Shown here: piece by piece, positions 2,967 through 51,831 of the stretch
How positions within the stretch are numbered: position 1 is the stretch's first letter
Layout: each line of letters starts with the position of its first letter
Assembly (NCBI GenBank): GCA_041661305.1
Contig: JBAZUR010000001.1
Location: forward strand, 33,591 to 97,590
Length of the DNA: 64,000 nucleotides
DNA from: Minisyncoccota bacterium
Lineage (GTDB): Bacteria; Patescibacteriota; Minisyncoccia; Phycocordibacterales; VMEP01
Direction of reading: 5' to 3'
Position numbers and translations under genes: made by a program
The notes under the pieces: generated by a model
What the model was told of the DNA's origin: nothing
Seen by the model: only the letters and a program-made list of their open reading frames with translations
The model's database searches: none

Positions 2967-2990
2967 AGACTCCTATATAATAGGCAGAAT

Positions 2991-3773: not shown

Positions 3774-3920
3774 ATTGTTGTAACGCAAATAATTCGATGA
3801 TAGTTTTTATTGAATAATAATTTTTAAAAAGTGGAAAAGTGGTTCGCAAAAATATTCACGAGGGTATAGTATTTAAATATAAGACGGCTACAGTCGCGTG
3901 GCGTCTTCAATATTATATAT

Positions 3921-6006: not shown

Positions 6007-6371
6007 GGCCTTGAACCGGACAGTCGCTCTAACTTTATTGTTGGGGAGGAAAGTCCGAACACTTACTGTCTAACCGTTCGGCGACAGTAGAAGGGTAGCG
6101 GGTAACGCCCGTCCGGAGCAATCCGAGAGGTGCGAGCAGTGACGTCGATGCCGAAAGGCTAGACCTCCCACGTGGAGGAATCCTATAGAAATATAGGGGT
6201 GAAACGGCTAAATCCTTACTTAAGTGCAAGGCCGTGCCATCTTTATGATGGAGTGCCGCTTGAGCCCGTAAGTAATTACGAGCCCAGATAAATGGCTGTC
6301 GCCCCGTGAGATAGGCGTCGAAAGACGCCGCCATCTCACGGGGTACAGAATTCGGCTTATAGGTTCAGGGT
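6007..6371 (+). ncRNA. rnpB: RNase P RNA (bacterial type)
   Basis: ACCGGACAGTCGC near the 5' end, GGGGAGGAAAGTCCGAACAC (P4 GGAAAGUCCG box) and 3' ACAGAATTCGGCTTATAGG (ACAGAAxCCGGCUUA box). P1 pairing ccttgaacc/ggttcaggg. Confidence 0.8.
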
Positions 6372-6376
6372 AAACA

Positions 6377-6504: not shown

Positions 6505-8865
6505 ATGCAAGGAATAAAAAAATTGTTTTCATTGGAGGCATTACCGTTTGGATTATTGGTTGGTTTAGTTTTCTTATTACCAGTTTTTTTCTTGTCTGTA
6601 AGTGGGATTTCTCTTGATGTAAGTAAGAGTGTCCTCGCAGTTATCTTAATTGTTGCCGCGACAGCCTTGTGGCTAGTGGGGCGTATGGTGGATGGCAAGA
6701 TTGTTGTACCAAAAACACTTCTTGTTTTGTTCGCAGCATTACTTCCACTTGAATATTTAGTTTCAGCTGTTGCTTCAAAAGTTCCAGCGATGTCACTTTT
6801 TGGTCAAGGTTTTGAAGTCGGAACATTTGCATTCACTTTTGTGATGTTCCTTCTTTTGTTCTTGGCTTCTATTTTGGTTAATTCAAGAGACAAAGTGTTC
6901 ACAGTTTACGTGTCGGCAATGGCTTCTTTCTTGGTAGTAGCTATTTACCAAGGAATTCGTCTTTTTGCAGGAGCAGATGTCCTTACTTTAGGAGGAAACT
7001 TCTCTGGTGTAATCGCCAATACTGTTGGTAAATGGAACGATTTAGGGGCATTTTTTGGGATGATAGCTATTCTTTCCATGATAACCCTTGAAACATTACC
7101 TCTTAAGGGTTTTGTTAAGTACCTCACTTATTTGTCTCTTGCTGTCTCAGTATTTTTCTTGGCCGTTGTTAACTTCAGTTTTGCCTGGATTGCTCTCGCT
7201 GTAATCTCTCTTATGATTTTTGTTTTTGCGATTTACTTAAACAAAAGCGAAAACCCAACAAATGATCAAGAAGCTCCTTCTTTGATACCAAAGACAAAGG
7301 TTCCAGTAATTGCACTTGTTGTACTTCTAATTTCACTCTTTTATGTTTTTTCCGGAGATAAAATTGGTGGTTTCTTGCCAACACAGTTCAATGCTTCACA
7401 AGTAGAGGTTCGTCCATCCTGGAGTGCTACATATGACATCGTGAAGGGTTCTCTTTCTCAGAATCTTCTACTAGGAAGTGGTCCTAACCGTTTTTCATCA
7501 GAGTGGGCATTGCACCGACCAGCAGTTTTGAATGAAACAATTTTCTGGGCAACTGACTTTAACGCCGGGATTGGTTTGATTCCATCGTTCGCTGTCACAA
7601 CTGGACTTTTTGGTGTTTTGGCTTGGGTTTTATTCCTTGGATATTTCCTCTTCCGTGGGGTCAAGAGCATTCTCATGTTTGATATGGGACGTATGGCTCA
7701 GTATTCAATACTCTCGTCTTTCCTTTTGTCTGTGTATTTATGGCTCTTCGCAATGTTCTACGTTCCTAATGTTGTGATCTATGCCTTGGCATTCCTTATG
7801 ACAGGAGTTTTCATTGCCACCTTAATAAACGAGGGGATTGTTAAAACTTACCAAATCTCACTCCTTGGAAGTCCTAAAATTGGTTTTGTTTCTGTGCTTG
7901 CTTTAATTTCTCTAACGATTGCTTCGGCTGCACTTGGTTATGTTTTTGTTGAGAAAGCAATATCATCTATTAATTTCCAGAAGACTATTCAGGCTTTGAA
8001 TACTGATGGAGATTTTGACAAGGCTGAAGTTGGCTTGCTTAAAGCAGTTCAGTTTTCAGAGAACGATCTTTACTACAGATCACTTTCTCAGGTTTATTTG
8101 GTTAAGTTGAATAATTTATTCCAACAGCAAAACCTTACTGAAGCAGAGGCAAAATCACAATTTCAAGCTATTCTTGGAAATGCTATAGAAAATGCTCGTA
8201 AGGCTCGCGATTATGACGCAACAAACTACACGAACTGGATGAATCTAGCATCAGTTTACGAGTCTGTTGTTCAGCTCGGTGTTACTGGTGCTTACGACGA
8301 AGCAAAGAAAGCTTACGAGCAGGCTTCTGTTTTAAACCCACAAAGTCCGCTTGTATACCTCACACTTGCTCGTCTTGAGGTTGCAAACAAAGACAACAAG
8401 GCCGCTCGAGAAAACCTTAACAAAGCACTCGCTCTAAAGAGCAATTACACAGATGCGCTCTTCTTCCTTTCTCAGCTTGAAGCAGGAGAGGGAAATATAG
8501 CAGAAGCGATTTCAAGAGCAGATCAAGCTTCGTTATTGTCACCAAATGATGTCGGTTTGTTCTTCCAGTTGGGTTTGTTGAAATACACCAACAAAGACTA
8601 CAATGGTGCAATTCTTTCTTTGGAGCGCGCAGTACAGCTTAATGGGAATTATTCAAACGCAATGTACTTCCTTGGCTTAAGTTACGACAAGGTTGGAAGA
8701 AAGGCTGATGCTCTTGCTCAGTTTGAAAAAGTTGAAGCACTAAATCCAGACAACCAAGAGGTTAAGAACATTCTTGTTAACCTTAGAGATGGAAAGAGTG
8801 CGTTAACTGATGTTCCTCCACCATCCCCAGAAAAGAAGAGTAATCCTCCAGTAAAAGAAAATTAA
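6505..8865 (+). CDS. Polytopic membrane protein with C-terminal TPR repeats (O-antigen ligase/Wzy-like family)
   Basis: About 12 hydrophobic helices in the N-terminal ~470 aa. C-terminal ~300 aa has repeated TPR-like units (AYEQASVLNPQS, ALALKSNYTDALFFL, AVQLNGNYSNAMYFLG...). Confidence 0.6.
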   Translation: MQGIKKLFSLEALPFGLLVGLVFLLPVFFLSVSGISLDVSKSVLAVILIVAATALWLVGRMVDGKIVVPKTLLVLFAALLPLEYLVSAVASKVPAMSLFGQGFEVGTFAFTFVMFLLLFLASILVNSRDKVFTVYVSAMASFLVVAIYQGIRLFAGADVLTLGGNFSGVIANTVGKWNDLGAFFGMIAILSMITLETLPLKGFVKYLTYLSLAVSVFFLAVVNFSFAWIALAVISLMIFVFAIYLNKSENPTNDQEAPSLIPKTKVPVIALVVLLISLFYVFSGDKIGGFLPTQFNASQVEVRPSWSATYDIVKGSLSQNLLLGSGPNRFSSEWALHRPAVLNETIFWATDFNAGIGLIPSFAVTTGLFGVLAWVLFLGYFLFRGVKSILMFDMGRMAQYSILSSFLLSVYLWLFAMFYVPNVVIYALAFLMTGVFIATLINEGIVKTYQISLLGSPKIGFVSVLALISLTIASAALGYVFVEKAISSINFQKTIQALNTDGDFDKAEVGLLKAVQFSENDLYYRSLSQVYLVKLNNLFQQQNLTEAEAKSQFQAILGNAIENARKARDYDATNYTNWMNLASVYESVVQLGVTGAYDEAKKAYEQASVLNPQSPLVYLTLARLEVANKDNKAARENLNKALALKSNYTDALFFLSQLEAGEGNIAEAISRADQASLLSPNDVGLFFQLGLLKYTNKDYNGAILSLERAVQLNGNYSNAMYFLGLSYDKVGRKADALAQFEKVEALNPDNQEVKNILVNLRDGKSALTDVPPPSPEKKSNPPVKEN

Positions 8866-13079: not shown

Positions 13080-13213
13080 AGATTGAGTAAAGTGAAAAGC
13101 TGTGCGGGTAAGCGAGCAAACTGCTTTGCTCGCTTACCCGCACAAAATTTAATATTTATTACCATTTTAAGTTTGTGATATAATCAGCATTCATTAAAAA
13201 TAGTAAAAATTAT

Positions 13214-13544: not shown

Positions 13545-13616
13545 GCCCTCGTAGTTAAATGGATATAACTACCCCGTCCTAAGGGGTAATTGTGGGTTCG
13601 ATTCCTGCCGAGGGCA
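13545..13616 (+). tRNA. tRNA-Arg (anticodon CCT)
   Basis: Acceptor GCCCTCG/CGAGGGC, anticodon stem ACCCC/GGGGT, loop GTCCTAA, T-loop TTCGATT. Confidence 0.75.
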
Positions 13617-13815
13617 TAAAATAAAGAAGACGGCTAGCGAGCCGTTCTTCTTTATTTTATGCCCGAGAGCGACTGAACTGCTTCAGTCGCGTGCAGGAAT
13701 CGAAAGGCGGAACTATGTTTTTGTAGCAACAAAAACAAGTGAGCCGGGGTCGAGGAAATTTTGAGTGGCGACGAAAAATTATCCGTGACCGAAAGCGTAC
13801 TCGCGATTCCTGCTG
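13617..13815 (+). repeat. tRNA-associated miniature element (plus orientation) downstream of tRNA-Arg
   Basis: Two hairpins, then the T-loop-complement box gcaggaatcgaaaggcggaac (13691-13711). Then the conserved M motif in reverse-complement form, gagccggggtcgagg...ccgtgacc (13741-13790). Then cgattcctgc, a direct copy of the tRNA-Arg T-loop/T-stem segment. Confidence 0.6.
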
Positions 13816-14941: not shown

Positions 14942-14959
14942 CAACAACACCATACAATA

Positions 14960-14990
14960 AAAAATCCGCGTAAGCGGATTTTTTATTGTA
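14960..14990. terminator. Bidirectional terminator between tRNA-Phe and the hsp20 gene
   Basis: aaaaaatccgc-gtaa-gcggatttttt, flanked by A-run and T-run. Confidence 0.7.
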
Positions 14991-14991
14991 T

Positions 14992-15462
14992 TTAAATTGA
15001 CCTAACTTTTAGTTTCGTTTGCTTTTCGCGGTCAACTTTTGGAAGGCGAATAACGAGTAGCCCGTGCTTTTCAATGGCTTCTGTTTCCTCCGGCTCTATT
15101 TCTTGTGGAAGCATTATTGTTCGAGAGAATGAGCCCCAATACAGTTCGTGATAGAAATAATCGTCTTCTTCACCTTCTTTGTTTTCCTCTCTTTTACCCT
15201 TGATTGTTACCATGTCGCGAGTTATGGAGATTTGAAGATCGTCTGGCTTTACTCCAGCAACAATAGATTTGATTATTATTTCAGTTGGTGTTTGGTAAAC
15301 ATCAACAGTTAGTTGTGCGTCCTCAGCCTCTTCTTCCATCCAAGGAGCTGTGCCCTTATGGGTTCCTTTTTCGTCGTCTTGTTCAAGAGTTTCCTCGTTA
15401 TCGTCATTTAAAGAAACACTCCCAGTTAATTTTTCGAAAAATGATCGTTTGTCTTTAGACAT
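14992..15462 (-). CDS. Hsp20/alpha-crystallin family small heat-shock protein
   Basis: Alpha-crystallin domain (DVYQTPTEIIIKSIVAGVKPDDLQISITRDMVTIKG...HELYWGSFSRTIMLPQ). Confidence 0.85.
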   Translation of the reverse strand: MSKDKRSFFEKLTGSVSLNDDNEETLEQDDEKGTHKGTAPWMEEEAEDAQLTVDVYQTPTEIIIKSIVAGVKPDDLQISITRDMVTIKGKREENKEGEEDDYFYHELYWGSFSRTIMLPQEIEPEETEAIEKHGLLVIRLPKVDREKQTKLKVRSI

Positions 15463-20421: not shown

Positions 20422-21576
20422 TTATATGCCACGCTCTGACTCTAATATTTTGTGAGGCATTTTAATCTGATGGATACGGTTCTGTATCTTTACTAGAAGC
20501 CAAGCTAAAAATAGAATAAGGATAAGGTGTAAGACCATAGCTAACCAGCCGGGAAAAAATTTAAAAAAGAAATCGTAGCGCGATACCAGAGGCCAGTGAA
20601 GCAGGTAAACTTCATAAGCATAAAGGCCAAAAAGCGAGAAAGCTTTAATCTCGAATTTTTTCAGAGAAAAAAGAAATATTACAGCGCTCATTGTGACAAG
20701 ACTAATTAACTGTTCTTTCCATAAGCTTTCTCCTACACCAGAATAGTATGCAGTATAACCAACTAAGATTAACAGGGCTGTTAAAACTCCATAATATATA
20801 ACATGCTTCATAATTCTTAGATTATTCCAAAATATATTTAATTTTTTTATTTTGTTAAGAATTATCGGTAGCCAAACTGACGATTTAGAAAACAGCGAAG
20901 CAACAGCTACACCAAGAGGGAAGGCCAACATATGTAACTGATATAAATGGAAAACACTTTCAGTGACCGGAAGATTCAACTGAAGTATGAAATATGAAGA
21001 AATATAAACAAGAATTGCTGTGAACCAAGAGTGTTTTCTGAGAAAAAGTAACGGAAAAACTAGATAATAAAAGAGGATTTGGGTAAAAAACCAAAGAGGT
21101 GAATCAATATCAGTAAATAGATCAGCGCTTCCGAAAAATCCAAATAGAGTTTTGAGAATGTATGTTGAGCTATATGAAATGTGTAGAAGGAAAAAGTCTA
21201 GTAGGAAAAAGATGATAAGAATTATCCAAAAAGGAACGAACAATCTTAATAAACGTTTTTCGTAAAACTCGCTGATTTGCAACTTCTCTTTTAACGAGCT
21301 AATGGTCAGCCCGTATCCAGATAAAAATAAAAATAAGTTTACCCCCACGCCCGCCATAATAGATAGGGGAAATAAAAAATTATGATTATCTGAAAGGAAA
21401 TAACCAACGTGGGAAAAGATTATGGCTAAAATCGCCAATCCCTTAAGTTCACGTGTTAGCTCCAAAGAAAATAGCTCATGTTTTTCTTTTCGCCTGATTG
21501 ATATAAGTAGAACAAAAACAAAAATTACTATAAATATACTGGTTGAGAGAATCGGATTATTTATATAAATCGGCAT
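20422..21576 (-). CDS. Acyltransferase family 3 (OatA-like) membrane protein
   Basis: 384 aa, 10-11 TM helices, N-terminal RRKEKHELFSLELTRELKGLAILAIIFSHVG typical of acyltransferase_3. Confidence 0.7.
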   Translation of the reverse strand: MPIYINNPILSTSIFIVIFVFVLLISIRRKEKHELFSLELTRELKGLAILAIIFSHVGYFLSDNHNFLFPLSIMAGVGVNLFLFLSGYGLTISSLKEKLQISEFYEKRLLRLFVPFWIILIIFFLLDFFLLHISYSSTYILKTLFGFFGSADLFTDIDSPLWFFTQILFYYLVFPLLFLRKHSWFTAILVYISSYFILQLNLPVTESVFHLYQLHMLAFPLGVAVASLFSKSSVWLPIILNKIKKLNIFWNNLRIMKHVIYYGVLTALLILVGYTAYYSGVGESLWKEQLISLVTMSAVIFLFSLKKFEIKAFSLFGLYAYEVYLLHWPLVSRYDFFFKFFPGWLAMVLHLILILFLAWLLVKIQNRIHQIKMPHKILESERGI

Positions 21577-21609
21577 AAATTATTTTAGAGGAGCCGAAGA
21601 AGTTTCAGT

Positions 21610-21779
21610 TTGTGATGTAATTCTATCCTTTGCACGAACCTTTTTCGAGCGGAGCTCGTAACGCCTCGCTTCACTCGGCGCCCACCGCGCGATTACGCGC
21701 GGTCGCCCTTCGCCCCATCGCTCTCCATTCTTTATCAGTCCGGCGGGAAATTCTTTGATTTAGGTATGGGCGATGGGGC
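21610..21779. repeat. IR-A left copy (170 bp perfect inverted repeat)
   Basis: Exact reverse complement of 27906-28075. GC-rich. Confidence 0.9.
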
Positions 21780-22310
21780 TTCGGGCGAAATGCAAATTCA
21801 GAATACATCAATCGTGTCTCGGTCATTACTCTATCATTTTGCTTTCCTGACTTAAAGGGGTCCATCCTCGGCATTCGCCTCGGGCATTTCCGCTATGGCT
21901 ACGAGCGCCTAGATGTCTAGGAGCGGGCATTCTCTCGCCAACGGCTCAAATACCAGGAGATGAGCCGTTCGGCTCGCTTGCCCGCGACCATTTGGGGAGA
22001 GGAAGTTATCCTCTCCCCAGCGTCGGGCTCCTCCTCGCAGTGGTTAGCGGGAGTATTCAGTGCCGTATTTCCTTAGTGGTTTGCCTGTGTTTTCCTCTCG
22101 CTTTTATGTGCCTACGGAGTCCGCCCTCGCACAACCCCTCTCCTCGTTTTCAATATTTCCTTAGTAGTGTCGCTTCCGCTACTTAGCTTCGCGTTTCAAG
22201 ATAGAGTCGGCGCTCGTCCTTTAGTCATGGACGCCATAGCGGAAATGCCCGAGGCGCAAATGCATGTGCTTGCCCCTCCCTCCCGTGCGCGCACGCACCC
22301 GCTCCCTTGT

Positions 22311-22880
22311 TTAGATTTTAGAATACGATACGCTTTTTCCTGTTTTGCCTGTTTGTTTGATTTTCCCTTCTTTCGCCAGTGTTGATAGATACCTTGTCGC
22401 TGTGGCATCAGACACATGCAGGAGTTTCTCCACCTCGTCGTTAGTTATGCTTGCCCGCTTCTCAAGCAATACCAAAATCTTTTCCAGTTTCTTTCGTTTC
22501 CGGAACTGCATTGCGTTTCGCGCAATCGCTAGCAATTCACGGGCTCGGCTTCTTGGTTCTACTGCCGGAGTCGGAACTTGAGCCATTGGTTCGGGCTTCA
22601 ACGGCTCATTTGCCGGTATTTGAGCCGTTTGGGTTTGGGCTGGTTCGGCAACCGGTTCAAGAGCTAAATCAGGCTCATTTTGGGCTTCCGGTTGAGCCGT
22701 TTTCTCGGGTTCGGGGGCTTGGGCTGTAGGCTCGTTTGGTGGCTCAGAAACGGCAGGCGTATCAATGACCGGAGACGATATAACTTCGCTTGCGGGGGCT
22801 TCCACGGCCTCAGGGGGCACAGGGGAGGGTTCGGAAACGGTTGTATCTTTGGGAGGGAGTGTTAGGGGGTCTGGGGGCAT
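22311..22880 (-). CDS. Pro/Glu-rich protein with C-terminal winged-helix DNA-binding domain
   Basis: Low-complexity PEPxA N-terminus. C-terminal LLEKRASITNDEVEKLLHVSDATATRYLSTLAKEGKIKQTGKTGKSVSY wHTH. Confidence 0.5.
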   Translation of the reverse strand: MPPDPLTLPPKDTTVSEPSPVPPEAVEAPASEVISSPVIDTPAVSEPPNEPTAQAPEPEKTAQPEAQNEPDLALEPVAEPAQTQTAQIPANEPLKPEPMAQVPTPAVEPRSRARELLAIARNAMQFRKRKKLEKILVLLEKRASITNDEVEKLLHVSDATATRYLSTLAKEGKIKQTGKTGKSVSYSKI

Positions 22881-22908
22881 ATTTATATTTTAGCAAAATA
22901 AAAAACAT

Positions 22909-24402
22909 CTATCCTAAAGCAACCAGTCCATCCTTTAGTACCATCGTGGCTTTACAGTCATCTTCGTTATATTCAAGTATCCTATTTATAACTTTTTCGT
23001 CTTTTGTATTGATATAATCATTAAACCACTGAATAGACAGTGCCCCGGATGGTGTTTCGTCGCGCCAATGAAATCCTAGATATGTAGCGAGCGCTTTGAG
23101 AGAATAGCTACCTACCGGCCAGTCTGTCATCTTAAGTACAACTTGGTATAAATCAATAACATTTGGATTATCAAAAAATTCTTCAACCTCTTTCGCTGAA
23201 ATTACCTCAGGATATTTTTTCTGCATCTTGCTATATGTAGTTTTTTCATGATGAGAATAGTAATACACGGAAAAATCTCCTTTAGGTAATGATTTTACAT
23301 AAGTCCAAAAATCTCCCCACGCTTTTTTCTCCGCGTCCGCTGTTATTTCGTGTGCAGTAAAATGCAAATAGCGTTCTCTTTCCTTTGTTCTCTCGTAAAC
23401 TCCGTGCATATAAACAAACTCTTGAGTGGGGTCATCTTCAATATCAAAAAATAACTCATGAGATACTTCAGGGAAATCTAATTCCCCATAAATAAGAGGT
23501 TTTTTAGATACCTTAAGAATTTGTGCCCTCCTAACAGCTTTCTCAAGAGTGGATTTACCTACCCCTTTAAGAAAGGTTTTGTCTTTCTCTTTCTGTTCCA
23601 GAAGTCCGTCAGTATCAATTTTTAAAAGACTATCAATAGTATTTACACCTGCATCCTCGGCAAGAACATCTCTTACTGAACGACCGACATAAAAGATGTT
23701 AGTTGGGTCATCATTATCTTTTGCCCACTTACTACAACTTAGATACCATGGGCACAACTTACAAATTCCAGACATTGCTGGCTTATTCGTTGCTTTATTT
23801 TCCATCAAAATACCAACATTGTTTTTTATTGATTCATAAAATTCCCACCATGTACGCTTATCTCTTTGCCCCATAGCGTCATTGAGATTGTAGGTGACTT
23901 CCTTTCCCTCAATATCAAGAACCACAGCACAATCATTGTTTTTAAAACCATTCTTTTTTAATACATCAACATATAAAGCTAGCTGTACTGCATAATGTTT
24001 TTTAGGTTTTCCTTCCTCGTCCTCGTCACTATTAGCCCCCTCAAAAGCAAGTCCGGACTTAATGTCTATAGGAACATAAGAACCATCAGGTTCTAAACGA
24101 AGTAGGTCTGGAATACCCAAAAGGTTGTCATAGCACAACACCCCCTGATAAATAAGAGGGATTTTGTCGGAAAGGGCTTTAATGGTTTTTTGAAATCGTT
24201 CATCAAGAGAGCCTTCTGTTAAGTCAAGGTATTCCTCAAGCAAACTAACTCGCTTTTTTTCATAAGCAATTCCTTTAGACCAAAGAAGTTCTACGAAAGG
24301 GTTAGTTTCCTTTATTTTCTCATCTTGTGGGCCGTATTCATCTCGCCAAATACGATGCGGACATTGAATATAGTCGTAAAGTTTGGATGCGGTTATATAC
24401 AT
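22909..24402 (-). CDS. Cas4/RecB-like PD-(D/E)XK Fe-S nuclease with a C-terminal domain of unknown function
   Basis: N-terminal YIQCPHRIW Cys, GIPDLL, IDIKSG (ExK-type), QLALYVDVL (QxxxY) and C-terminal CKLCPWYLSC (Cx2Cx5C), the Cas4/AddB-type 4-Cys cluster. About 270 aa extra C-terminal domain (possibly DUF2779-like; uncertain). Confidence 0.7.
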   Translation of the reverse strand: MYITASKLYDYIQCPHRIWRDEYGPQDEKIKETNPFVELLWSKGIAYEKKRVSLLEEYLDLTEGSLDERFQKTIKALSDKIPLIYQGVLCYDNLLGIPDLLRLEPDGSYVPIDIKSGLAFEGANSDEDEEGKPKKHYAVQLALYVDVLKKNGFKNNDCAVVLDIEGKEVTYNLNDAMGQRDKRTWWEFYESIKNNVGILMENKATNKPAMSGICKLCPWYLSCSKWAKDNDDPTNIFYVGRSVRDVLAEDAGVNTIDSLLKIDTDGLLEQKEKDKTFLKGVGKSTLEKAVRRAQILKVSKKPLIYGELDFPEVSHELFFDIEDDPTQEFVYMHGVYERTKERERYLHFTAHEITADAEKKAWGDFWTYVKSLPKGDFSVYYYSHHEKTTYSKMQKKYPEVISAKEVEEFFDNPNVIDLYQVVLKMTDWPVGSYSLKALATYLGFHWRDETPSGALSIQWFNDYINTKDEKVINRILEYNEDDCKATMVLKDGLVALG

Positions 24403-24463
24403 ACAAGTATCAGAAAACTATACCACTTGCTTTGTTTTATTTATATACCACCTAAAATCACAA

Positions 24464-25306
24464 TTATTGATTGGTTGGTTTAGCTATACCGGAAACAACA
24501 GAATTAACTTTTGAAAATAAATCTGGACTGTTTTCCTTCTCCTTTACATGATTGTCCTTGATATTTTTCATGGGCGAGGAATAAAGATCAGTGACGGCTC
24601 CAAGAATGAAGTCAAGTTTTTGCTGATAAGTAGTGGATTGGTAGTCAGAAAAAATTTCTTCAATTATATTTTTGTATGCTTCAAATGAGCGTGCGATAGC
24701 AGCTTTAAAAGTATATTCTTCAATGAGATTTCGTATCCGACCATATTCTCTACTGGTAAAAACGACAAAATAGACAATAGGGGAAGTCAGGGCAACTTTT
24801 ATTAGAAAGCTAACTTCAAATATAGTTTCTTTTTCTAGAATCTGCCAGACAACTATACCAACGGTGGCAATAATAAGAACGACCACTGCTCCAACTAGCC
24901 ACCAAAACCATTTTATTTTCTCTTTTCCCAACTCGTCCTTAACTCCTTCAAATGTACTCGCAAGCTTCGCATTTGCAGCCACCCCAAGTTGCGCCTGAGT
25001 CTCTTTAATAAACTCTTCTACTTTCTGTTGTAACTCTTTTGTTTTTTCAACTAAGTCGGACACTTCTCCTTCTCGTGTAATAACTTGTTCGTTTAGACTT
25101 TTTACCTCTGTGGTTATGCGGTTTAGTTCTTCGCTCCGTGTTGGCAAATCGTTTAGAAAAGAATCAATGTTAGTTTTTTTAGTTTGAGCGTCATTAATAA
25201 GATTTGGTAAACCCTGTCCTTGTTGAACAAGACTGTTTAAATCACCTAATGCCGTAAGTCGCTGATTTATCTCTGTAAGGACTTGTTGTAATTCTTTTTT
25301 ATTCAC
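24464..25306 (-). CDS. Coiled-coil membrane protein (hypothetical)
   Basis: N-terminal ~130 aa heptad-rich, two TM helices (FWWLVGAVVVLIIATVGIVVW; IKVALTSPIVYFVVF), C-terminal soluble tail. Confidence 0.5.
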   Translation of the reverse strand: MNKKELQQVLTEINQRLTALGDLNSLVQQGQGLPNLINDAQTKKTNIDSFLNDLPTRSEELNRITTEVKSLNEQVITREGEVSDLVEKTKELQQKVEEFIKETQAQLGVAANAKLASTFEGVKDELGKEKIKWFWWLVGAVVVLIIATVGIVVWQILEKETIFEVSFLIKVALTSPIVYFVVFTSREYGRIRNLIEEYTFKAAIARSFEAYKNIIEEIFSDYQSTTYQQKLDFILGAVTDLYSSPMKNIKDNHVKEKENSPDLFSKVNSVVSGIAKPTNQ

Positions 25307-25402
25307 AAATTTTTTTATCTAACTAATAATGTGGATAACTAGTTTTGGACTTTCTAGTTTTGTTCTAGTATAATTGATGGGTAAGAAACAAGTCAAGCCT
25401 AT

Positions 25403-26926
25403 ATGCTCACAAAACGCCAAAAAGAAGTTCTAGACTTCGTAGGAAGTTATTCCCAAAAGAAAGGTTATTCTCCATCGTTTGAAGAAATCAAAAAGCGACT
25501 TAAGCTCGCCTCTGTCTCAACTGTTCATTTCCATATATCAAAACTCAAAGAAGGTGGTTATTTAGGAAAAACAGAAAATAAGGCTCGTGCCATTAGTGTT
25601 GCGTCTAAAGAACCGATGATCAAAATCCCTCTTTTGGGAACTATCGCAGCCGGAGAGCCTATAGAGGCAATTCGTCAAAATGAGTTTATTGCTGTTCCTA
25701 AGAATGTATTACCTAGTACCGGTAATCTTTATGCTTTGAGAGTGATAGGAAATAGTATGATAGATGAAAATATTAAAAACGGAGATATTGTCTTAGTAAA
25801 ACAGCAAGATGTCGCGGAAAATGGAGAAAGGGTTGTTGCTTTAATTGATAATCATGAGGCAACGCTTAAGAAATTTTATAAAGAACGAGGATATATACGA
25901 CTTCAACCGGCAAATAAAACCTTTGAACCGATTATTATAAGAAAAGATCGTGACATTAAAATTCAAGGAGTTGTTATAGATGTTATTAAAAACGAGGAGG
26001 AATTACAGGCGGAGGAAATTACAATAATCAAAGAGACAAAAAAGGAAAGAAAGTTACCCCTTAATAAAATAATTTTAGGAGACGCTATCCAAGAACTAAG
26101 AAAACTCCCTAATGAAAGTTGTGATGTTGTTATAATTGATCCACCCTATAATATCGGTAAAGATTTTGGAAATAATATAGATAAAAGAGAACTTGGAGAA
26201 TATGTGGAGTGGTGTAAAAGTTGGATAGACGAAAGCATAAGAATCATGAAGCCAAATGGGACAATGTTTATTTATGGTTTTAGTGAAATTTTGGCTTACC
26301 TTTCTATTGAAATCCCGATACAAAAACGGTGGTTAATTTGGCATTATACAAATAAAAATGTTGCCTCACTCAATTTTTGGCAACGAAGCCATGAAGCAAT
26401 AATTTGCGCATGGAAAGATAAACCTGTTTTCAATAGGGATGAAGTTAGAGAACCATACACAGACGGCTTCCTAAATGGAGCTGCCGGCAAGGTAAGAAAA
26501 GGAACTCTCGGGAGATTTAGTAGCAGTGGTCTAGAAACTGTCTATAAAGCTCACGCGGGCGGGGCTCTGCCAAGAGATGTAATCAAAATTCCGGCTCTTG
26601 CTGGAGGAGCGGGAATGAACGAAAGATGGTTTTTGTGTAAAACCTGTGACGATGTTTGTGAACCACGACAACTGAAAAATCATGAGGGGCATGAAGTAAT
26701 GAAGCACCCGACACAAAAACCATTTGAGCTATCTAAGAAATTAATAAAATCTGCTATGCCTAAAAAGGACGGAATTGTGTTGGTTCCCTTCGTTGGTACT
26801 GGTTCAGAATGCGCGGCGGCAAAAGAATTAGGTCAATCGTATATTGGCTTTGAAATTAACCCTGACTATGTGAGGTTAGCTGAAAAAATGGTAGGCGATA
26901 AAAAATCGGTTGCCAAATTATTTTAA
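25403..26926 (+). CDS. Full-length LexA repressor fused in-frame to a DNA methyltransferase (beta-class N6A/N4C)
   Basis: Residues 1-200 align over their whole length with LexA: LTKRQKEVLDFV HTH, IAAGEP cleavage site, GNSM Ser and LKKFYK Lys. Residues ~230-507 carry VVIIDPPYN (motif IV), then C-terminal VLVPFVGTGSE (motif I) and a CxxC..H..H insert. Confidence 0.8.
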   Translation: MLTKRQKEVLDFVGSYSQKKGYSPSFEEIKKRLKLASVSTVHFHISKLKEGGYLGKTENKARAISVASKEPMIKIPLLGTIAAGEPIEAIRQNEFIAVPKNVLPSTGNLYALRVIGNSMIDENIKNGDIVLVKQQDVAENGERVVALIDNHEATLKKFYKERGYIRLQPANKTFEPIIIRKDRDIKIQGVVIDVIKNEEELQAEEITIIKETKKERKLPLNKIILGDAIQELRKLPNESCDVVIIDPPYNIGKDFGNNIDKRELGEYVEWCKSWIDESIRIMKPNGTMFIYGFSEILAYLSIEIPIQKRWLIWHYTNKNVASLNFWQRSHEAIICAWKDKPVFNRDEVREPYTDGFLNGAAGKVRKGTLGRFSSSGLETVYKAHAGGALPRDVIKIPALAGGAGMNERWFLCKTCDDVCEPRQLKNHEGHEVMKHPTQKPFELSKKLIKSAMPKKDGIVLVPFVGTGSECAAAKELGQSYIGFEINPDYVRLAEKMVGDKKSVAKLF

Positions 26927-27613
26927 AGCCTCATCCATTTCCTTTTTCTTCTGCTCAAAGGCGTAAGGAGTAAAAACAACGAAACCATTAGGGAATCGTT
27001 TTAATTCTTTGTTATCTTGGAACCTTTTATATGGGAGTTTATATTCGCCGTCCTTTTTCTTTGGGTTTTCAAAATACTCACTACTTGGAACTTCATAATT
27101 AATATCAATGAACTCGCCTTCTATTTTGTTTTTGACTCCTCCCTTACCACGCCTAACCTCGCCACTGAATGATTTCTTTTTAACTTGGTAGTTCAAGATT
27201 TTGCCTCTATATGTAATTTGAAAATCTGCTCCCTGATGGTCAAGCTCGCCTGACATAGAAACTGTGCCTTCGCCAAAAACTGATTCTGCAACATAACCGG
27301 CGTGGATTTGAGTGATTATACTCGCCCATGTTCTATAAATTCTAGCGGGCAATCCTTTATGAAAACATTCTTTACACATCCCAATTTTTTCTTGAAACTT
27401 TTTAATCTCTGCCCCATATTCACTCATATACTCTTTGTAAAATTCATCAAAACTTAGAAATTCTTTCTTCCCCCAGTATATTTTGTAGAGTAGGTTAATA
27501 GCTTGGATTTCTTTTGGTAAATCCATTTCCACGATCTTAACAGGTCTATATTTTTCACGATAGGACTTAAGGTCAACTGATTGTAAAAATTTGTCGAATT
27601 TTTGGACTAGCAT
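26918..27613 (-). CDS. Candidate type II restriction endonuclease (no recognisable family)
   Basis: 231 aa. Convergent with the MTase with a 9-nt 3' overlap. Immediately downstream of and co-oriented with the XRE controller gene. Possible D..(ADFQI)..K core. Confidence 0.4.
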   Translation of the reverse strand: MLVQKFDKFLQSVDLKSYREKYRPVKIVEMDLPKEIQAINLLYKIYWGKKEFLSFDEFYKEYMSEYGAEIKKFQEKIGMCKECFHKGLPARIYRTWASIITQIHAGYVAESVFGEGTVSMSGELDHQGADFQITYRGKILNYQVKKKSFSGEVRRGKGGVKNKIEGEFIDINYEVPSSEYFENPKKKDGEYKLPYKRFQDNKELKRFPNGFVVFTPYAFEQKKKEMDEALK

Positions 27614-27616
27614 AAA

Positions 27617-27835
27617 TTATAGAAAATATGATGACGGTTTTTGGTATATCTCTGCAAATTTTTTCATTTCTGCCACATCAAGCCTTCTTTCACCAGATTC
27701 AATCTTTGAGATAAAAGATTGTGGTTTCCCGAGCTTATCAGCAACATCTTGCTGTGCTAATCCGGCTTCAACACGCGCCTTTTTCAAGCGTCTTATAATC
27801 TCTTTGTAGTCCTTTGAATAAACAGATTTACTCAT
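27617..27835 (-). CDS. XRE-family HTH regulator (C-protein-like controller)
   Basis: MSKSVYSKDYKEIIRRLKKARVEAGLAQQDVADKLGKPQSFISKIESGERRLDV is a canonical HTH_XRE. Start taken at the internal ATG; the longer ORF extends into IR-A. Confidence 0.7.
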   Translation of the reverse strand: MSKSVYSKDYKEIIRRLKKARVEAGLAQQDVADKLGKPQSFISKIESGERRLDVAEMKKFAEIYQKPSSYFL

Positions 27836-27870
27836 GTATTTAGTATGATATATCCTTTTATGGTATAATC

Positions 27871-27897
27871 CCAAAATAGGATTATATAGAGTAGTTT
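27871..27897 (-). promoter_or_regulatory. Candidate C-box/operator palindrome upstream of the controller gene
   Basis: TATAATCC-tattttg-GGATTATA inverted repeat about 35-60 bp upstream of the XRE start. Confidence 0.35.
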
Positions 27898-27905
27898 TAC
27901 CCCTC

Positions 27906-28075
27906 GCCCCATCGCCCATACCTAAATCAAAGAATTTCCCGCCGGACTGATAAAGAATGGAGAGCGATGGGGCGAAGGGCGACCGCGCGTAATCGCGCGG
28001 TGGGCGCCGAGTGAAGCGAGGCGTTACGAGCTCCGCTCGAAAAAGGTTCGTGCAAAGGATAGAATTACATCACAA
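27906..28075. repeat. IR-A right copy (170 bp)
   Basis: Exact reverse complement of 21610-21779. Its outer 6 bp overlap IR-B left. Confidence 0.9.
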
Positions 28076-28206
28076 TTTGATACATCGGCTGGATTAAGAA
28101 AAAAATCGGCGTCCGCCTTCGGCGGAGTAAGTGGAGATAAAACGAAATCTGCCTTGCGGGTGCGGGCGAAATCGGAGGGCGGGCAAAATGAGATTGAGAT
28201 AGTTTT
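28070..28206. repeat. IR-B left copy (137 bp perfect inverted repeat)
   Basis: Exact reverse complement of 29624-29760. Confidence 0.9.
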
Positions 28207-28231
28207 TAAAGATTTTGAATCCAAAAGCGAT

Positions 28232-29818
28232 ATGTCTAAACCAAAATATTTTCTCTATGCTCGCAAGAGTACTGAAGATGACGATAAGCAAGTCATGAGT
28301 ATTGAAGCTCAATTGTTTGAACTTCGTGAGTTTGCGAGCAGAGAAAATCTTGAAATTATTGAGGAATTTCAAGAGTCAAAAAGCGCAAAGAGTCCGGGAC
28401 GAGAAGTGTTCGGCGTAATGATGATGCGTATAGAGAAAATGGGTAATGTTGGTATTCTCGCGTGGCATCCTGACCGCTTGGCGAGAAACAGTATTGATGG
28501 CGGACGCATCATTTACGCCGTAGACACTTCAAAAATCGTCTCTTTGCGTTTTCCGACATTTTGGTTTGAACCCACTCCGCAGGGGCTATTTATGCTTCAA
28601 GTGGCGTTCGGACAGTCCAAATATTATTCCGACAATTTGAAGCAGAATGTTGAACGAGGTATGCGCCAAAAACTGCGACGGGGCGAATGGCTGACACGCG
28701 CTCCCTTCGGGTATGTGAACAATCCTAAAACGCGCAATATTGAGCCGGATGTAGTGAAATCTAAAATTATTGTCCGCGCGTTTGGAGAATATGTAAAAGG
28801 AACACATACTCTAGAGTCGCTGTCGCAGTTTTTGGCTCTGCACGGTGTAGCGCAAAAGTCCGGAACGCCACTTGGCAAAGCTTCCGTGAAAAGAATTTTG
28901 ACTAATCGCGCTTATCTTGGATTCACTTTGCATCGCGGAGAATATTTTCCCGGAAGCTTTGCGCCAATTCTTTCTCCGACATTGTTTGAAGCTGTACAAA
29001 AAAGATTGGAAGAGCGAGCGCGTCCAAGACACAGCAAAATATCCCATAATTTTCCTTTCGTTGGTCTTTTTCGTTGTGGCGAGTGTGGCTCAATGATTAC
29101 CGCCCAATGGGCGACAAACCGGTGGGGTTCAAAGTATAGATATTATCGCTGTACGAAAAAGAAAGGAAAATGTTATCAGGGATATTTGAAAGAAGACGCT
29201 CTCGCTCTCCAAGTTAAGGAACAGCTTCAATCAGTGTCTATACCCCTAGCGTGGGCGGATTATATGCTCAAAAAAGTGGAAGAATTTGAGCATAACGAAA
29301 AACACGCTTCGGGAAATCGTCTCGGGCAGATGAAGGACAATCTGAAAACGCTTGAAGCGAAGTTAGACGCTCTTGTTGATTTGTATCTAAACCAAGACAT
29401 TGAGCGCGAGATATATCTGACGAAAAAGGACGCGCTCATGCGTCAAAAACTTTCGCTTCAAGCCAAATCTTCATCCGCCCGAGCCGTGAGAAAGAATTGG
29501 GTCGAACCCCTGCGGAAATGGATTTTGGATTCAAAACGCTCGGGGTTTCTCGCCACGAGCGAAAATCTCTATGAGATGAGAGATTTTCTTCGTTCCTTCG
29601 GAACGAACCCCTCGCTTAAAGACAAAACTATCTCAATCTCATTTTGCCCGCCCTCCGATTTCGCCCGCACCCGCAAGGCAGATTTCGTTTTATCTCCACT
29701 TACTCCGCCGAAGGCGGACGCCGATTTTTTTCTTAATCCAGCCGATGTATCAAATTGTGACCCTACAGGGAATCGAACCCTGGTTCCAAGCTTGAAAAGC
29801 TTGTGTCCTAACCGTTAG
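28232..29818 (+). CDS. Large serine recombinase (resolvase/invertase catalytic domain, recombinase domain and zinc ribbon)
   Basis: YARKSTEDDDKQVMSIEAQ (catalytic Ser), GILAWHPDRLAR, recombinase-domain segment and CGECGSMI...YRCTKKKGKC zinc ribbon. Start at MSKPKYF. The open frame runs through IR-B right into tRNA-Glu, so the true C-terminus is uncertain. Confidence 0.8.
   Translation: MSKPKYFLYARKSTEDDDKQVMSIEAQLFELREFASRENLEIIEEFQESKSAKSPGREVFGVMMMRIEKMGNVGILAWHPDRLARNSIDGGRIIYAVDTSKIVSLRFPTFWFEPTPQGLFMLQVAFGQSKYYSDNLKQNVERGMRQKLRRGEWLTRAPFGYVNNPKTRNIEPDVVKSKIIVRAFGEYVKGTHTLESLSQFLALHGVAQKSGTPLGKASVKRILTNRAYLGFTLHRGEYFPGSFAPILSPTLFEAVQKRLEERARPRHSKISHNFPFVGLFRCGECGSMITAQWATNRWGSKYRYYRCTKKKGKCYQGYLKEDALALQVKEQLQSVSIPLAWADYMLKKVEEFEHNEKHASGNRLGQMKDNLKTLEAKLDALVDLYLNQDIEREIYLTKKDALMRQKLSLQAKSSSARAVRKNWVEPLRKWILDSKRSGFLATSENLYEMRDFLRSFGTNPSLKDKTISISFCPPSDFARTRKADFVLSPLTPPKADADFFLNPADVSNCDPTGNRTLVPSLKSLCPNR
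29624..29760. repeat. IR-B right copy (137 bp)
   Basis: Reverse complement of 28070-28206. Ends exactly at the 3' end of tRNA-Glu. Confidence 0.9.
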
Positions 29819-29829
29819 ACGATAGGGCC
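29758..29829 (-). tRNA. tRNA-Glu (anticodon TTC)
   Basis: Reverse complement GGCCCTATCGTCTAACGGTTAGGACACAAGCTTTTCAAGCTTGGAACCAGGGTTCGATTCCCTGTAGGGTCA. Confidence 0.8.
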
Positions 29830-39990: not shown

Positions 39991-40108
39991 AAGGGTACCA
40001 AAACCGCCCCTTTTTGGAACGTGCTACTAGGGAAAAGGTTAGCACGGAACTGTATTATTGTCAACCATTAAAAACTGGCTCAAATAAAGGAGTTTTTAGG
40101 TAATTAGT

Positions 40109-40200
40109 GTTTAAATTTCGTGGAAAAGTGCTTTTTTTCTTTCTTCAAAAAAGAGAACAAATGTTAACCACGCAAGAATGCTCATAGATCCGGCAATTCC
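40109..40200 (-). pseudogene. Duplicated 3' fragment of the MFS transporter gene (C-terminal ~30 codons)
   Basis: 40109-40187 is near-identical to 40528-40605, the 3' end of CDS 40529..41776. It encodes ...IAGSMSILAWLTFVLFFEERKKALFHEI*. Confidence 0.6.
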
Positions 40201-40296: not shown

Positions 40297-40528
40297 TGTG
40301 TAGGTCACCACCCTTAAAACATAGTCGGGTGGGATACGAACATCCTACCTTTGGCCTTAATCGCTGGGAGACCACCAGATTGCGAGCACTACCCGCGGCG
40401 TAAAGTGCGACTTTTGTATAATCCCGGGCGCCTTCCCGTGTTGCATCTTTAGCTATTCTAGCTTAATTCGTTATTTTTGTCAATAGCTAAAATACCCTTT
40501 AAACAAAAGGTATTTTGGTGGTTAGTAT

Positions 40529-41776
40529 TTAAACCTCGTGGAAAAGTGCTTTTTTTCTTTCTTCAAAAAAGAGAACAAATGTTAACCACGCAAGAATGCT
40601 CATGGCGCCAGCTATTAAAATCGGAAGATTAATTGATATTGTCGCGGCAAACCCGGCGAGTATTGGAGGGAGGGCTTGGGCAAGGGATTGAATTGATTGA
40701 TTTATTCCCAAAATTTCACCTTGTGACTCTTTGTCGGCCAAATTGGAAACAATAGCGTTATAGTTTGGCATTGTGAGTCCATTCCAAATTGAAATAAATG
40801 GAATGATTAGATAAATATAAATTGCTTGGTCCGGTAAAAGTAAAAAAGGGAAAGTTAAACCAAGGAGAAGGGTTGAAAAACGGAGAATTTTTACTGGCGC
40901 AAATTTAAAGGAAAGTGGGCGCACGATAAGCCCTTGAGTTAGTGCTATGCATAGTCCCATGTACGCAAAAAGATTTCCGAGGTTGCTTTGAGTAAATTCA
41001 AATTTGTTTATAAGAAACACTTGGAAAAATTGAGTGAAAAATGCAAATCCAAACGATAAAAGAAAAATGACAATAAAAATAACGCGGAGGTTTTCCATAT
41101 GAAAAGCTTTTTCTATGTTTTTGAATCCGGTCAGAATAGATATTTTTCTGTGGATCCTTGTTTTTAGTGTTTCTTCAAATTGGAAATAAATTAGTATGAT
41201 GTTTAAGAACGTAAGTATTGAGGAGAATAAAAATGGCGTTGCGTAATTAAAAGAGCTGTAGACTAATGGGTCAGATAGCTTCCCGCCTAAAAACGGACCG
41301 ATAATAAATCCTAAACCGAGCATCATTCCTACAAGTCCGAAATTACGTACTTTGGTGCGCTCATCGCTTATGTCGGCAATGGCACTATAAGCAACAGATA
41401 AACTTCCTCCAGAAAACCCAGAAAGAATACGCCCGAGGAATATAACAGGAAGGCTGGCCGTTATTATTCCAATAGCTGTGAGTAAGTACCCTGCGAGCAT
41501 TCCACCAAGGGAAGCTAGAAAAATTGGCTTTCGGCCGATTCTATCTGATAGTCCACCCAAAATAGGAGAACCAAAAAATTGGGCAATTGGATAGCACGCA
41601 AGAAGAAAACCCAAAATTATGTTACGAAAGGCGACGCCGTATGAAGGGGGGAGAATCCCCGTTTGGTGCATATCAAGAAGTAATGGGGCGAAAATTGGGA
41701 TGACAATACCAAAGCCGACCAAGTCGATAAAGACAATAGTGATTATGGGTAGTAGGGGGTTTTTTCTAGCGAGCAT
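40529..41776 (-). CDS. MFS transporter
   Basis: 12 TM helices and the GGLSDRIGRKP MFS motif A. Confidence 0.8.
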   Translation of the reverse strand: MLARKNPLLPIITIVFIDLVGFGIVIPIFAPLLLDMHQTGILPPSYGVAFRNIILGFLLACYPIAQFFGSPILGGLSDRIGRKPIFLASLGGMLAGYLLTAIGIITASLPVIFLGRILSGFSGGSLSVAYSAIADISDERTKVRNFGLVGMMLGLGFIIGPFLGGKLSDPLVYSSFNYATPFLFSSILTFLNIILIYFQFEETLKTRIHRKISILTGFKNIEKAFHMENLRVIFIVIFLLSFGFAFFTQFFQVFLINKFEFTQSNLGNLFAYMGLCIALTQGLIVRPLSFKFAPVKILRFSTLLLGLTFPFLLLPDQAIYIYLIIPFISIWNGLTMPNYNAIVSNLADKESQGEILGINQSIQSLAQALPPILAGFAATISINLPILIAGAMSILAWLTFVLFFEERKKALFHEV

Positions 41777-51563: not shown

Positions 51564-51749
51564 CTCGTAGAAACTGGAGGGGGAAACTCGGTCACGAATA
51601 ATTTTGAGGACAAAATTTTCGCGACCCCGGCTCGCTGTCGCAGAGCGACATGCTCCGTCTTTCGAGTCTCCACACAAGCCAAGCAGTTGGCTTGTTCCTC
51701 CAGCACATAATTAAAAAACACACCCTAAAGGGTGTGTTTTTTAATTATG
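51564..51749 (-). repeat. tRNA-associated miniature element downstream of tRNA-Leu(TAG)
   Basis: Copy ctggagggggaaactcg of the tRNA-Leu 3' segment fused to M motif ggtcacgaataattttgaggacaaaattttcgcgaccccggctcg (51579-51623). Box ccgtctttcgagtctcc. Hairpin caagccaagcagttggcttg. 48-bp perfect palindrome terminator (51706-51753). Confidence 0.65.
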
Positions 51750-51831
51750 TGCTGGAGGGGAGACTCGAACTCCCAAGCCTTGCGGCATTAGTTCCTAAGA
51801 CTAACGCGTATACCAATTCCGCCACTCCAGC
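51750..51831 (-). tRNA. tRNA-Leu (anticodon TAG)
   Basis: Reverse complement GCTGGAGTGGCGGAATTGGTATACGCGTTAGTCTTAGGAACTAAT...GGGAGTTCGAGTCTCCCCTCCAGCA (long variable arm). Confidence 0.8.

Follow-up and report, generated by a model that had tools for sequence, protein, structure and literature searches.

Why should two pairs of long, perfect inverted repeats lie end to end beside the 3' end of a tRNA gene in a bacterium of the Candidate Phyla Radiation (CPR, Patescibacteria)? The question is raised by a stretch of 64,000 nucleotides (the window) from a 476-kb contig of a metagenome-assembled genome (MAG) of a Candidatus Paceibacterota bacterium, in which an integrative mobile element of 8,151 bp occupies positions 21610-29760. 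The answer that we favour is that this is probably a large serine recombinase (LSR) element inserted at the 3' end of tRNA-Glu(UUC), which carries its attachment site twice and has kept one of the two copies intact and inverted; the two pairs of perfect inverted repeats would then exist because the site is carried twice. The repeats, IR-A and IR-B, were delimited by self-comparison of 19-32 kb and by direct string comparison, and their four arms, for which no strand is given, are as follows.

21610-21779: left arm of IR-A (A-L), 170 nt, GC content 0.56, left end of the element; its junction with the host flank is reproduced by a contig (L167) from another sample
27906-28075: right arm of IR-A (A-R), left half of an internal, intact and inverted attachment site (attP)
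28070-28206: left arm of IR-B (B-L), 137 nt, right half of the internal attP and upstream or leader region of the recombinase gene
29624-29760: right arm of IR-B (B-R), right end of the element, with a terminator-like hairpin and T7 run at 29704-29731 in the sense of the recombinase gene

IR-A is a perfect 170-nt reverse complement (21610-21779 against 27906-28075) flanked by weaker similarity that reaches 21599-21790 and 27895-28086, and IR-B is a perfect 137-nt reverse complement (28070-28206 against 29624-29760); the two share 6 nt, TCACAA, at 28070-28075. These coordinates, the perfect identity and the 6-bp overlap agree with a first-pass annotation made from the sequence alone, as does the meeting of the outer end of IR-B with the 3' end of tRNA-Glu, where the arm ends 4 nt inside the gene. 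Two other statements of that annotation did not hold. It had proposed the inverted repeats as the two ends of the element, whereas in each repeat an end of the element is matched with a half of the internal attP, the ends A-L and B-R being unrelated in sequence to each other; and it had described the block as far richer in GC than its host, whereas the GC content is 0.412 in the element against 0.404 in the window and 0.392 in the left flank, the GC-richer parts (0.45-0.56) being limited to the arms, a non-coding module, a winged-helix-turn-helix (wHTH) gene and the recombinase gene, with 0.362 in the 5-kb cargo. Long inverted repeats elsewhere in the window are limited to short palindromes adjoining tRNAs, so that chance does not explain the two pairs. 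Self-comparison found no direct repeats flanking the element, and comparison with the empty site described below shows that the core copies at its ends are one host copy and one element copy, without duplication of host DNA. Neither the mutually inverted ends nor the target-site duplication of a terminal-inverted-repeat transposon was thus found.

The junctions of the element and its target are given next.

21610-21615, minus strand: core of attR, TTGTGA on the plus strand and TCACAA on the minus strand, at the junction of the A arm with the host flank
28070-28075, plus strand: core of the internal attP, TCACAA, common to IR-A and IR-B
29755-29760, minus strand: core of attL, TCACAA on the minus strand, at the junction of tRNA-Glu with the B arm
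29757-29829, minus strand: tRNA-Glu(UUC), the integration target, called by ARAGORN, 64.9 bits against the Rfam tRNA model, intact in the occupied and the empty state

When the three junctions are read in a common orientation, the left one, at 21610, passes from the A arm (...ATTACA) through TCACAA into host DNA (ACTGAAACTTC) and is attR; the internal one, at 28070, passes from the A arm (...ATTACA) through TCACAA into the B arm (TTTGATACATCGG) and is an intact inverted attP, with A arm, core and B arm together covering 301 bp (27906-28206); and the right one, at 29760, passes from the tRNA (...GTAGGG) through TCACAA into the B arm (TTTGATACATCGG) and is attL. It follows from this pattern that the empty host site, attB, should read from tRNA-Glu (...GGG) through TCACAA into ACTGAAACTTC. 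An exact look-up of the acyltransferase protein encoded in the left flank was made in public assemblies, and the predicted attB (...GGGTCACAAACTGAAACTTC...) is present at 100% identity on contigs L164, L165 and L166 (numbers with L are our handles for contigs and loci), which come from three independent samples (ENA ERZ27249449, JGI 3300014208 and Logan SRR6484324). On all three, window positions 29836-29755, with tRNA-Glu, are joined straight to 21615 and downward with a single copy of TCACAA, and this is the uninterrupted tRNA-Glu locus that the first-pass annotation had proposed to look for. Contigs L001-L003, from the same three samples, are 99.9-100% identical to the restriction-modification (R-M) cargo of the element and run from it into the A-R arm, inside which they stop, and L167, from a fourth sample, is the occupied junction of A-L with the flank. 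SRR18595301 is also among the samples that hold the element. Otherwise identical genomes therefore either have or lack the element at one exact site, and the junction between cargo and A-R is independently reproduced in other samples. A precise empty site and the cargo in the same samples thus indicate that the element is mobile; together with the logic of attL, attP and attR, the empty site supports the recombinase-driven integrative element that the first-pass annotation had offered as an alternative to an invertible module.

The attR, internal and attL junctions share a core of 3-9 nt in the window and in 10 of the 12 relatives compared, the exceptions being L015, without core overlap at attR, and L082, where the junction is masked by Ns. 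By junction logic and sequence, the locus shows what is expected of an LSR, namely attP x attB recombination at a short common core, hybrid attL and attR sites and a precise empty site. A GTTCG motif on the A side lies 6 bp further from the core than the T-loop GGTTCGA on the tRNA side; in the attP sites of known serine integrases the zinc-ribbon motif is shifted outward relative to attB, and the offset seen here is reminiscent of that shift. In the empty site (L164, 1-120) the ATG of the host acyltransferase gene lies 33 nt past tRNA-Glu, a distance so short that tRNA and gene are probably co-transcribed; integration separates the two by 8 kb and puts the outward promoter-like site of A-L before the gene (window 21576-21615).

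The gene bracketed by IR-B is the following.

28232-29818, plus strand: large serine recombinase, 528 amino acids, with the Pfam domains Resolvase, Recombinase and Zn_ribbon_recom; its open reading frame (ORF) extends over the B-R arm and the core as far as the antisense of tRNA-Glu

This enzyme, which the first-pass annotation had already recognised as a large serine recombinase and proposed to assign to a subfamily, is a bona fide LSR with a catalytic domain (PF00239, E = 5.8e-20, residues 7-153), a recombinase domain (PF07508), a zinc ribbon (PF13408) and a coiled coil. The closest solved structure is the SPbeta integrase, aligned over residues 9-412; the sequence relation to solved LSRs is distant (E = 3e-9), and the motif YARKS13 aligns with YLRRS of the SPbeta integrase so that the catalytic Ser13 is matched. 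R11 and S13 are invariant in 40 homologues, as are the zinc-ribbon cysteines C282, C285, C307 and C314. An AlphaFold model of moderate quality (mean predicted local distance difference test score 65.6) places the coiled coil at 339-419, with long paired helices at 339-386 and 392-419, and all 24 significant fold matches in the PDB are LSRs (SPbeta, Bxb1, 4KIS, phiC31). The tail of the model (458-528), which includes the part encoded by the B arm, is of low confidence. As the ORF has no stop codon in the B arm (29624-29818) and reads through the core into the antisense of tRNA-Glu, the last ~18 residues depend on whatever the B arm is joined to; tails of a tRNA type (...CDPTGNRT...) and of an A-arm type (...CDVILSFARTFF...) were seen. 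A GGAGG-like site followed by a mini-ORF of four codons (ATG AGA TTG AGA TAG) lies in the B-L arm at 28174-28202, ~40 nt upstream of the recombinase start, and may be a leader element. The source record appears not to list the recombinase as a protein, as there is a gap in its numbering, and an exact look-up of the protein with two start codons gave no match; flanking and cargo proteins were used for exact look-ups in its place.

Is this layout a peculiarity of one assembly? Because the source is a MAG, because other assemblies break inside the A arms, and because one relative (L013) has an NN scaffold join at the B arm, a collapsed or mis-joined repeat or a hairpin chimera had to be considered, and such an artefact had been named by the first-pass annotation as what would overturn its reading. 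A search with the recombinase returned 6,453 homologues at E <= 1e-30, at least 1,100 candidate loci were confirmed across two collections, and protein-guided scans provided two sets of 80 loci, one from genomes that represent species and one from metagenomes, with amino acid identities of 58-89%. The recombinase is bracketed by IR-B in 110 of the 117 loci with enough flank for self-comparison; of the 114 IR-B pairs that measure 100 nt or more, identity is perfect in 50 and 98% or higher in 83. The outer arm lies at most 12 nt from a tRNA 3' end in 98 of 109 loci, the targets being tRNA-Glu (47), Ser (15), Arg (13), Ala (9) and Ile (5), along with Gly, Val, Pro, Leu, Lys, Met and a suppressor. 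IR-A (112-330 nt, mostly 98-100% identical), with its right arm abutting the left arm of IR-B, was found in 19 of the 30 loci with more than 9 kb upstream. The same architecture occurs on a closed chromosome (CP060229.1, L053) and altogether in over 100 assemblies that are independent and come from various assemblers, the junctions of cargo with A-R and of A-L with the flank are reproduced at 100% identity in other samples, and the junctions obey the logic of site-specific recombination with cores that covary with the tRNA. Recurrence across the family and on a closed chromosome excludes an assembly artefact, to which we give next to no weight. The apparent path from recombinase to A arm in L013 was discarded, since the NN scaffold join follows at its B arm.

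The core itself follows the target. Its first 4 nt covary with the target tRNA over more than 20 isoacceptor types: TCAC with Glu, Ile(GAU), Pro and Leu; CCAC with Ala and Val; GCAC with Arg, Gly, Lys and Met; CCGC with Ser; and GGAC with Ile(UAU). On the other side of the element A-L abuts unrelated host flanks in 25 long contigs, and the host-side right half-site is not conserved. Clusters of recombinases at >=90% identity span differently named CPR groups. In L040 (18770-20422) a second recombinase, with only 40% identity to the query, is arranged alike, with ~120-nt inverted repeats at the 3' end of tRNA-Ser, so the architecture extends well beyond the close family. No relatives were found among the viral contigs of IMG/VR, which leaves a phage without support. 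In the searchable literature we found no description of a twin-attP inverted-repeat layout, and a paper on genomic islands of Patescibacteria does not mention recombinases or tRNAs; the family is thus apparently a so far undescribed one of LSR integrative elements of new design, widespread in Patescibacteria.

The perfect identity of the arms had been taken by the first-pass annotation as a sign of either very recent formation or ongoing homogenisation, and the family data favour the second. An arm is closer to its own partner than to the nearest arm of another element in 103 of 111 cases, with a median identity of 99.2% against 86.6%, and the arms therefore seem to be kept alike continuously and not merely to be young. 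The same concerted evolution implies exchange between arms, and it brings in the reading of the locus as an invertible, phase-variable switch, in which IR-A and IR-B would be substrates of ongoing inversion by the recombinase or by homologous recombination. A recombinase gene flipped to lie downstream of the tRNA-Glu promoter and in its sense would be ON, the antisense orientation observed here OFF, and a flip of the cargo would alter its expression. Perfect inverted repeats do bracket both segments, and transcription of the tRNA would read into B-R. The recombinase segment is known in both orientations relative to the tRNA across the family (L171, L172 and the short contig L019), the cargo segment also occurs both ways round, and the non-coding module that lies beside A-L in 17 elements is inverted beside A-R in four (L041, L088, L089 and L096). 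Yet ~90% of assemblies show a single orientation, including assemblies with a k-mer longer than IR-B and the closed genome, and the two orientations are known from different elements, not from one population. The alternative arrangements are explained equally well by integration through the other attP copy, the empty site and the tRNA-covarying core need integration, and LSRs do not normally recombine attP with attL or attP with attP. A switch is accordingly unlikely in our judgement.

A form that carries attP twice is supported by junctions of the type that excision would create. Among 120 representatives of recombinase clusters, the C-terminal tail runs into a tRNA in 76 and from B-R across the core into an A arm in ~11, a share of ~9% that a switch could also claim, and the two kinds of tail co-occur in clusters at >=90% identity. 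One contig of 8,625 nt (L170) reads [B/core/A-L] cargo [A-R/core/B-L] recombinase [B-R/core/A-like]; its first 100 nt are identical to its own positions 8391-8490, and the outer end of its cargo is joined to a B arm and not to host DNA. A second (L173) reads [A/B-L] recombinase [B-R/A-L], followed by the conserved module in plus orientation, which is the sequence normally found just inside A-L, so that the junction is exactly as excision would create it. A third (L171) is an alternative linearisation, tRNA-Ile/B, recombinase, B/A. To judge from these contig sequences, L170, L173 and L171 support the prediction of a circle, or of a tandem derived from one, with two inverted copies of attP. Other candidates were set aside: L019, with its flipped recombinase, is short, breaks off at the B arm and could be a graph mis-join, so that it is not relied on here, and L174 and L175 carry N-terminally truncated relics of the recombinase that are uninformative as to a circle. 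In L175, genes for IS110-family transposases lie on both sides of the relic (78-1241 and 2803-3813).

The same contigs bear on the idea that two adjacent units are present: an autonomous recombinase unit of 1.7 kb with B arms as terminal inverted repeats and a non-autonomous cargo cassette of 6.4 kb with A arms as terminal inverted repeats, each with a palindromic att site, inserted one after the other and mobilised in trans. Beside a tRNA-Ser in L020 (11844-14429, 40 nt past the tRNA) lies a recombinase-less unit of 2.2 kb with inverted 'variant A' arms of the A type (206 nt, 89.6% identical), which may be a non-autonomous or decayed cassette; a fragment of the module lies nearby (15238-15406). 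A recombinase flanked by two different A-type arms occurs in L155 and at the end of L170, many loci have IR-B with no detectable IR-A partner, and L001 has the same R-M module next to other DNA. Against two units, neither is present in the empty site, which has a single restored core; the A arm and the B arm invariably meet at one common core, which matches the tRNA end as well; and the junctions of B-R with A-L followed by the A-L-side module in L173 and L170 are what a single circle predicts. We know of no precedent among LSRs for recombination between a palindromic site and an attR-type hybrid, and overall we find this explanation improbable.

In the explanation that we prefer, the recombinase inserted the element by a conservative, site-specific exchange inside the TCACAA core, and the element came to lie precisely at the 3' end of tRNA-Glu(UUC). 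The free form would be a circle divided by two inverted attP repeats of ~300 bp into a recombinase segment of 1.4 kb and a cargo segment of 6.1 kb. Integration would split one attP copy, its A arm becoming the left end (attR) and its B arm the right end (attL), and the other copy would stay intact; use of one copy would give the arrangement observed here, with the 3' end of the recombinase gene next to the tRNA, and use of the other the rarer arrangement with the 5' end next to it. Because the two copies are inverted and not direct, homologous exchange between them would invert the segments and not delete them, and such exchange could be what keeps the arms near-identical. Several points weigh against this explanation. 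The empty site by itself shows polymorphism and not excision, the relative L015 has no core overlap at attR, and in 11 of the 30 loci with more than 9 kb upstream no IR-A partner was detectable. L170 ends in a different A-like arm, the two B arms of L173 are only ~70% alike, no third copy of the B arm was found in 160 other loci, and A-L meets unrelated host flanks in the 25 long contigs mentioned above; a tandem array, or a graph path through coexisting variants, could yield both contigs, and the circle of this genome's own element is deduced from assembled contigs of its relatives. The recombinase-less A-armed unit of L020 fits the two-unit model better, no replication genes are among the 25 commonest of 81 cargo families, the roles proposed below for a promoter are read only from matches to a consensus, and we know of no LSR that needs or uses a second attP.

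The end of the A arm next to the core offers a possible use for the retained site. Two promoter-like sites were found there by promoter scan.

21620-21648, minus strand: outward promoter-like site in the A-L arm (TCGAAA-17-TAGAAT), pointing across the core into the host acyltransferase gene
28037-28065, plus strand: promoter-like site in the A-R arm, directed over the core and B-L towards the recombinase gene

Across 96 distinct loci the arm end is conserved as TgTTCgAAAtAaGTTCGcGCAAAGGtTAg.AtTtCA / tCAC, with a -35/-10-like pattern at a fixed position in 59 of the 96 as against 2% of shuffles, and in 46 loci the -10 ends 4 nt before the repeat. This conserved promoter-like pattern is wrapped around a conserved GTTCGYGCAAAGG motif. 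In the internal attP the putative promoter would drive the recombinase gene, and bound recombinase could occlude it, which would make the gene autoregulated; in attR it would drive anew the host gene that integration has cut off from the tRNA promoter.

Just inside the A-L arm lies a further conserved part of the element.

21785-22301, plus strand: conserved GC-rich non-coding module, candidate structured RNA or DNA structure

The module (~500 nt) is conserved at 70-80% nucleotide identity in ~25 elements and lies at the inner side of an A arm in every case. Within it, 21877-21899 would pair with 22233-22255 as a long-range helix of 23 nt and 21994-22018 would form a hairpin; the RNAalifold consensus of the module has 44 pairs, 17 of them with compensatory changes, including the 23-nt helix. 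No conserved open frame was found that would make it a protein gene, and neither the arms nor the module matched Rfam at the gathering threshold and at E <= 1. An attempt to call its strand from G-U asymmetry was abandoned, the apparent wobbles being alignment shifts. Conservation and covariation suggest that the module may be a new structured RNA or a site acting at the DNA level.

The cargo between the A arms contains the following genes.

22311-22880, minus strand: winged-helix DNA-binding protein with a Pro-rich N-terminus (Pfam HTH_24), a semi-conserved backbone gene
22909-24402, minus strand: TM0106-family RecB-like nuclease (PD-(D/E)XK and RNase_H_2, from Pfam; name from the source record)
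24464-25306, minus strand: coiled-coil or transmembrane protein, from the ORF list, with only weak Pfam matches
25403-26926, plus strand: fusion of LexA DNA-binding domain, S24 peptidase and N6/N4 DNA methyltransferase, the R-M methylase (Pfam)
26918-27613, minus strand: TaqI-family restriction endonuclease (Pfam RE_TaqI, E = 4.7e-36), with identical copies on L001-L003
27617-27835, minus strand: HTH_3 (XRE-type) regulator (Pfam HTH_3, E = 2.3e-14), its ORF open back to 27919

Of 29 complete elements, 7 have a homologue of the wHTH protein next to A-L, as does L170, a position that makes it a candidate regulator or directionality factor. The HTH_3 regulator is probably the controller protein of the R-M system and appears to start at the second ATG. 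The methylase of this TaqI-type R-M system is fused to a full LexA DNA-binding domain and a self-cleaving S24 peptidase domain, an arrangement that could couple the methylase or the control of the R-M system to DNA damage; the fusion belongs to a cluster at 90% identity with 166 members in several CPR lineages (Azam-, Yanofsky- and Yonath-bacteria). On L001 (2704-3165) an identical R-M module continues, beyond the equivalent of window position 25334, into other DNA on its left, which points to modular exchange of cargo between element variants. Across 28 complete elements the cargo is variable and 1.9-8.9 kb long; the commonest genes are N6/N4 and C5 methyltransferases, restriction enzymes, ResIII helicases, a PLD/DrmC-like nuclease and AAA_15/21 ATPases, alongside miscellaneous metabolic genes, and no families for replication, conjugation or capsids are among the 25 commonest of the 81 found.

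No second element, module or recombinase was found elsewhere in the window. A GC-rich stretch at 50-51.5 kb reads by eye as protein-coding and has no match to recombinase, module or arms, and a 104-nt direct repeat of 90% identity (40082-40185 and 40501-40603, ~420 nt apart) is unrelated to the element. Near-perfect palindromes of 40-62 nt at 13101-13144, 13612-13664, 14952-14991, 51697-51758 and 52430-52482 directly follow or overlap the 3' ends of several other tRNA genes and are probably terminators; similar hairpins make up the host-side flank of related elements. A class A bacterial RNase P RNA at 6008-6375 scores 104.3 bits against an Rfam gathering threshold of 100, as would fit a divergent RNA.

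Taken together, these observations allow a bolder proposal, which as a whole is tentative and less likely than not: that a very large, undescribed family in Patescibacteria lives as a flip-flopping circle with twin inverted attP sites, that the internal attP is the autoregulated promoter and operator of the integrase, that the module is a new non-coding RNA for control of recombination or maintenance of the circle, and that a change of 4 nt in the core retargets the element among tRNAs. If the last were true, this recombinase lineage would be a naturally programmable set of serine integrases. The targets, spread over more than 20 types of tRNA isoacceptor, together with the attP cores that match them and the readily inferred pairs of attP and attB, are a possible panel of related integrases of differing specificities, and the structured module may represent a new class of RNA. 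CPR bacteria are a large and mostly uncultured part of bacterial diversity in which gene exchange is poorly known, and the family is a concrete and widespread mechanism that moves R-M and other defence genes between their lineages. The retained, intact and inverted attP also raises questions on autoregulation, isomerisation and behaviour independent of a recombination directionality factor.

How does this element compare with known systems? Tycheposons and other tRNA islands are likewise small islands carrying cargo and defence genes at the tRNA genes of streamlined genomes, with integrase lineages partitioned by target tRNA (10.1101/2020.12.28.424599). In those elements, 474 of 501 have tRNA-associated tyrosine recombinases, and partial copies of the tRNA are left as direct repeats (10.1101/2020.12.28.424599). 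In our element, by contrast, the integrase is an LSR, self-comparison gave no direct repeats, identity with the tRNA extends over just 4-9 nt, and the long repeats run in opposite orientation. The invertons of the Hin, Gin, Cin and Pin type and the shufflons resemble our element in having a serine-family recombinase gene beside or within DNA bracketed by inverted repeats. The Hin/Gin-type enzymes are small serine invertases (~190 amino acids, with a C-terminal helix-turn-helix) that act at sites of ~26 bp with a Fis-dependent enhancer and are not mobile, whereas the window has an LSR of 528 amino acids, repeats of 137 and 170 nt, an empty site and a tRNA target.

The yeast 2-micron plasmid, with FLP/FRT in inverted repeats of 599 bp, is similar in topology only: an inferred circle with two target-bearing inverted repeats that divide it into two unique segments, the recombinase being encoded by one, and both orientation isomers exist. 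The junctions of B with A that flank cargo or recombinase in L170 and L173, with differing arm variants, would fit such a circle. The 2-micron plasmid stays autonomous in the nucleus, without integration, and its FLP recombines FRT with FRT to amplify copy number. Unlike it, our element integrates and has a serine and not a tyrosine recombinase, and replication functions do not figure among its commonest cargo families.

The closest parallels are the known LSR elements and prophages (SPbeta SprA, Bxb1, phiC31, Listeria A118/LI, Tn4451 TnpX, SCCmec CcrAB). Their integration is unidirectional and their excision needs a recombination directionality factor, for which our element has only a candidate in the wHTH protein; nor is the host-side right half-site conserved here. 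Tyrosine integrases are the enzymes that typically target a tRNA 3' end, and here it is an LSR that uses the extreme tRNA 3' end, with the covarying core described above. With the known LSR elements our element shares the architecture of the enzyme, conservative recombination at a short core that gives attL, attR and a precise empty site, and a recombinase gene beside attP; what sets it apart is that a second, intact and inverted attP is kept, with whose halves the ends of the element form near-perfect inverted repeats of 115-330 nt.

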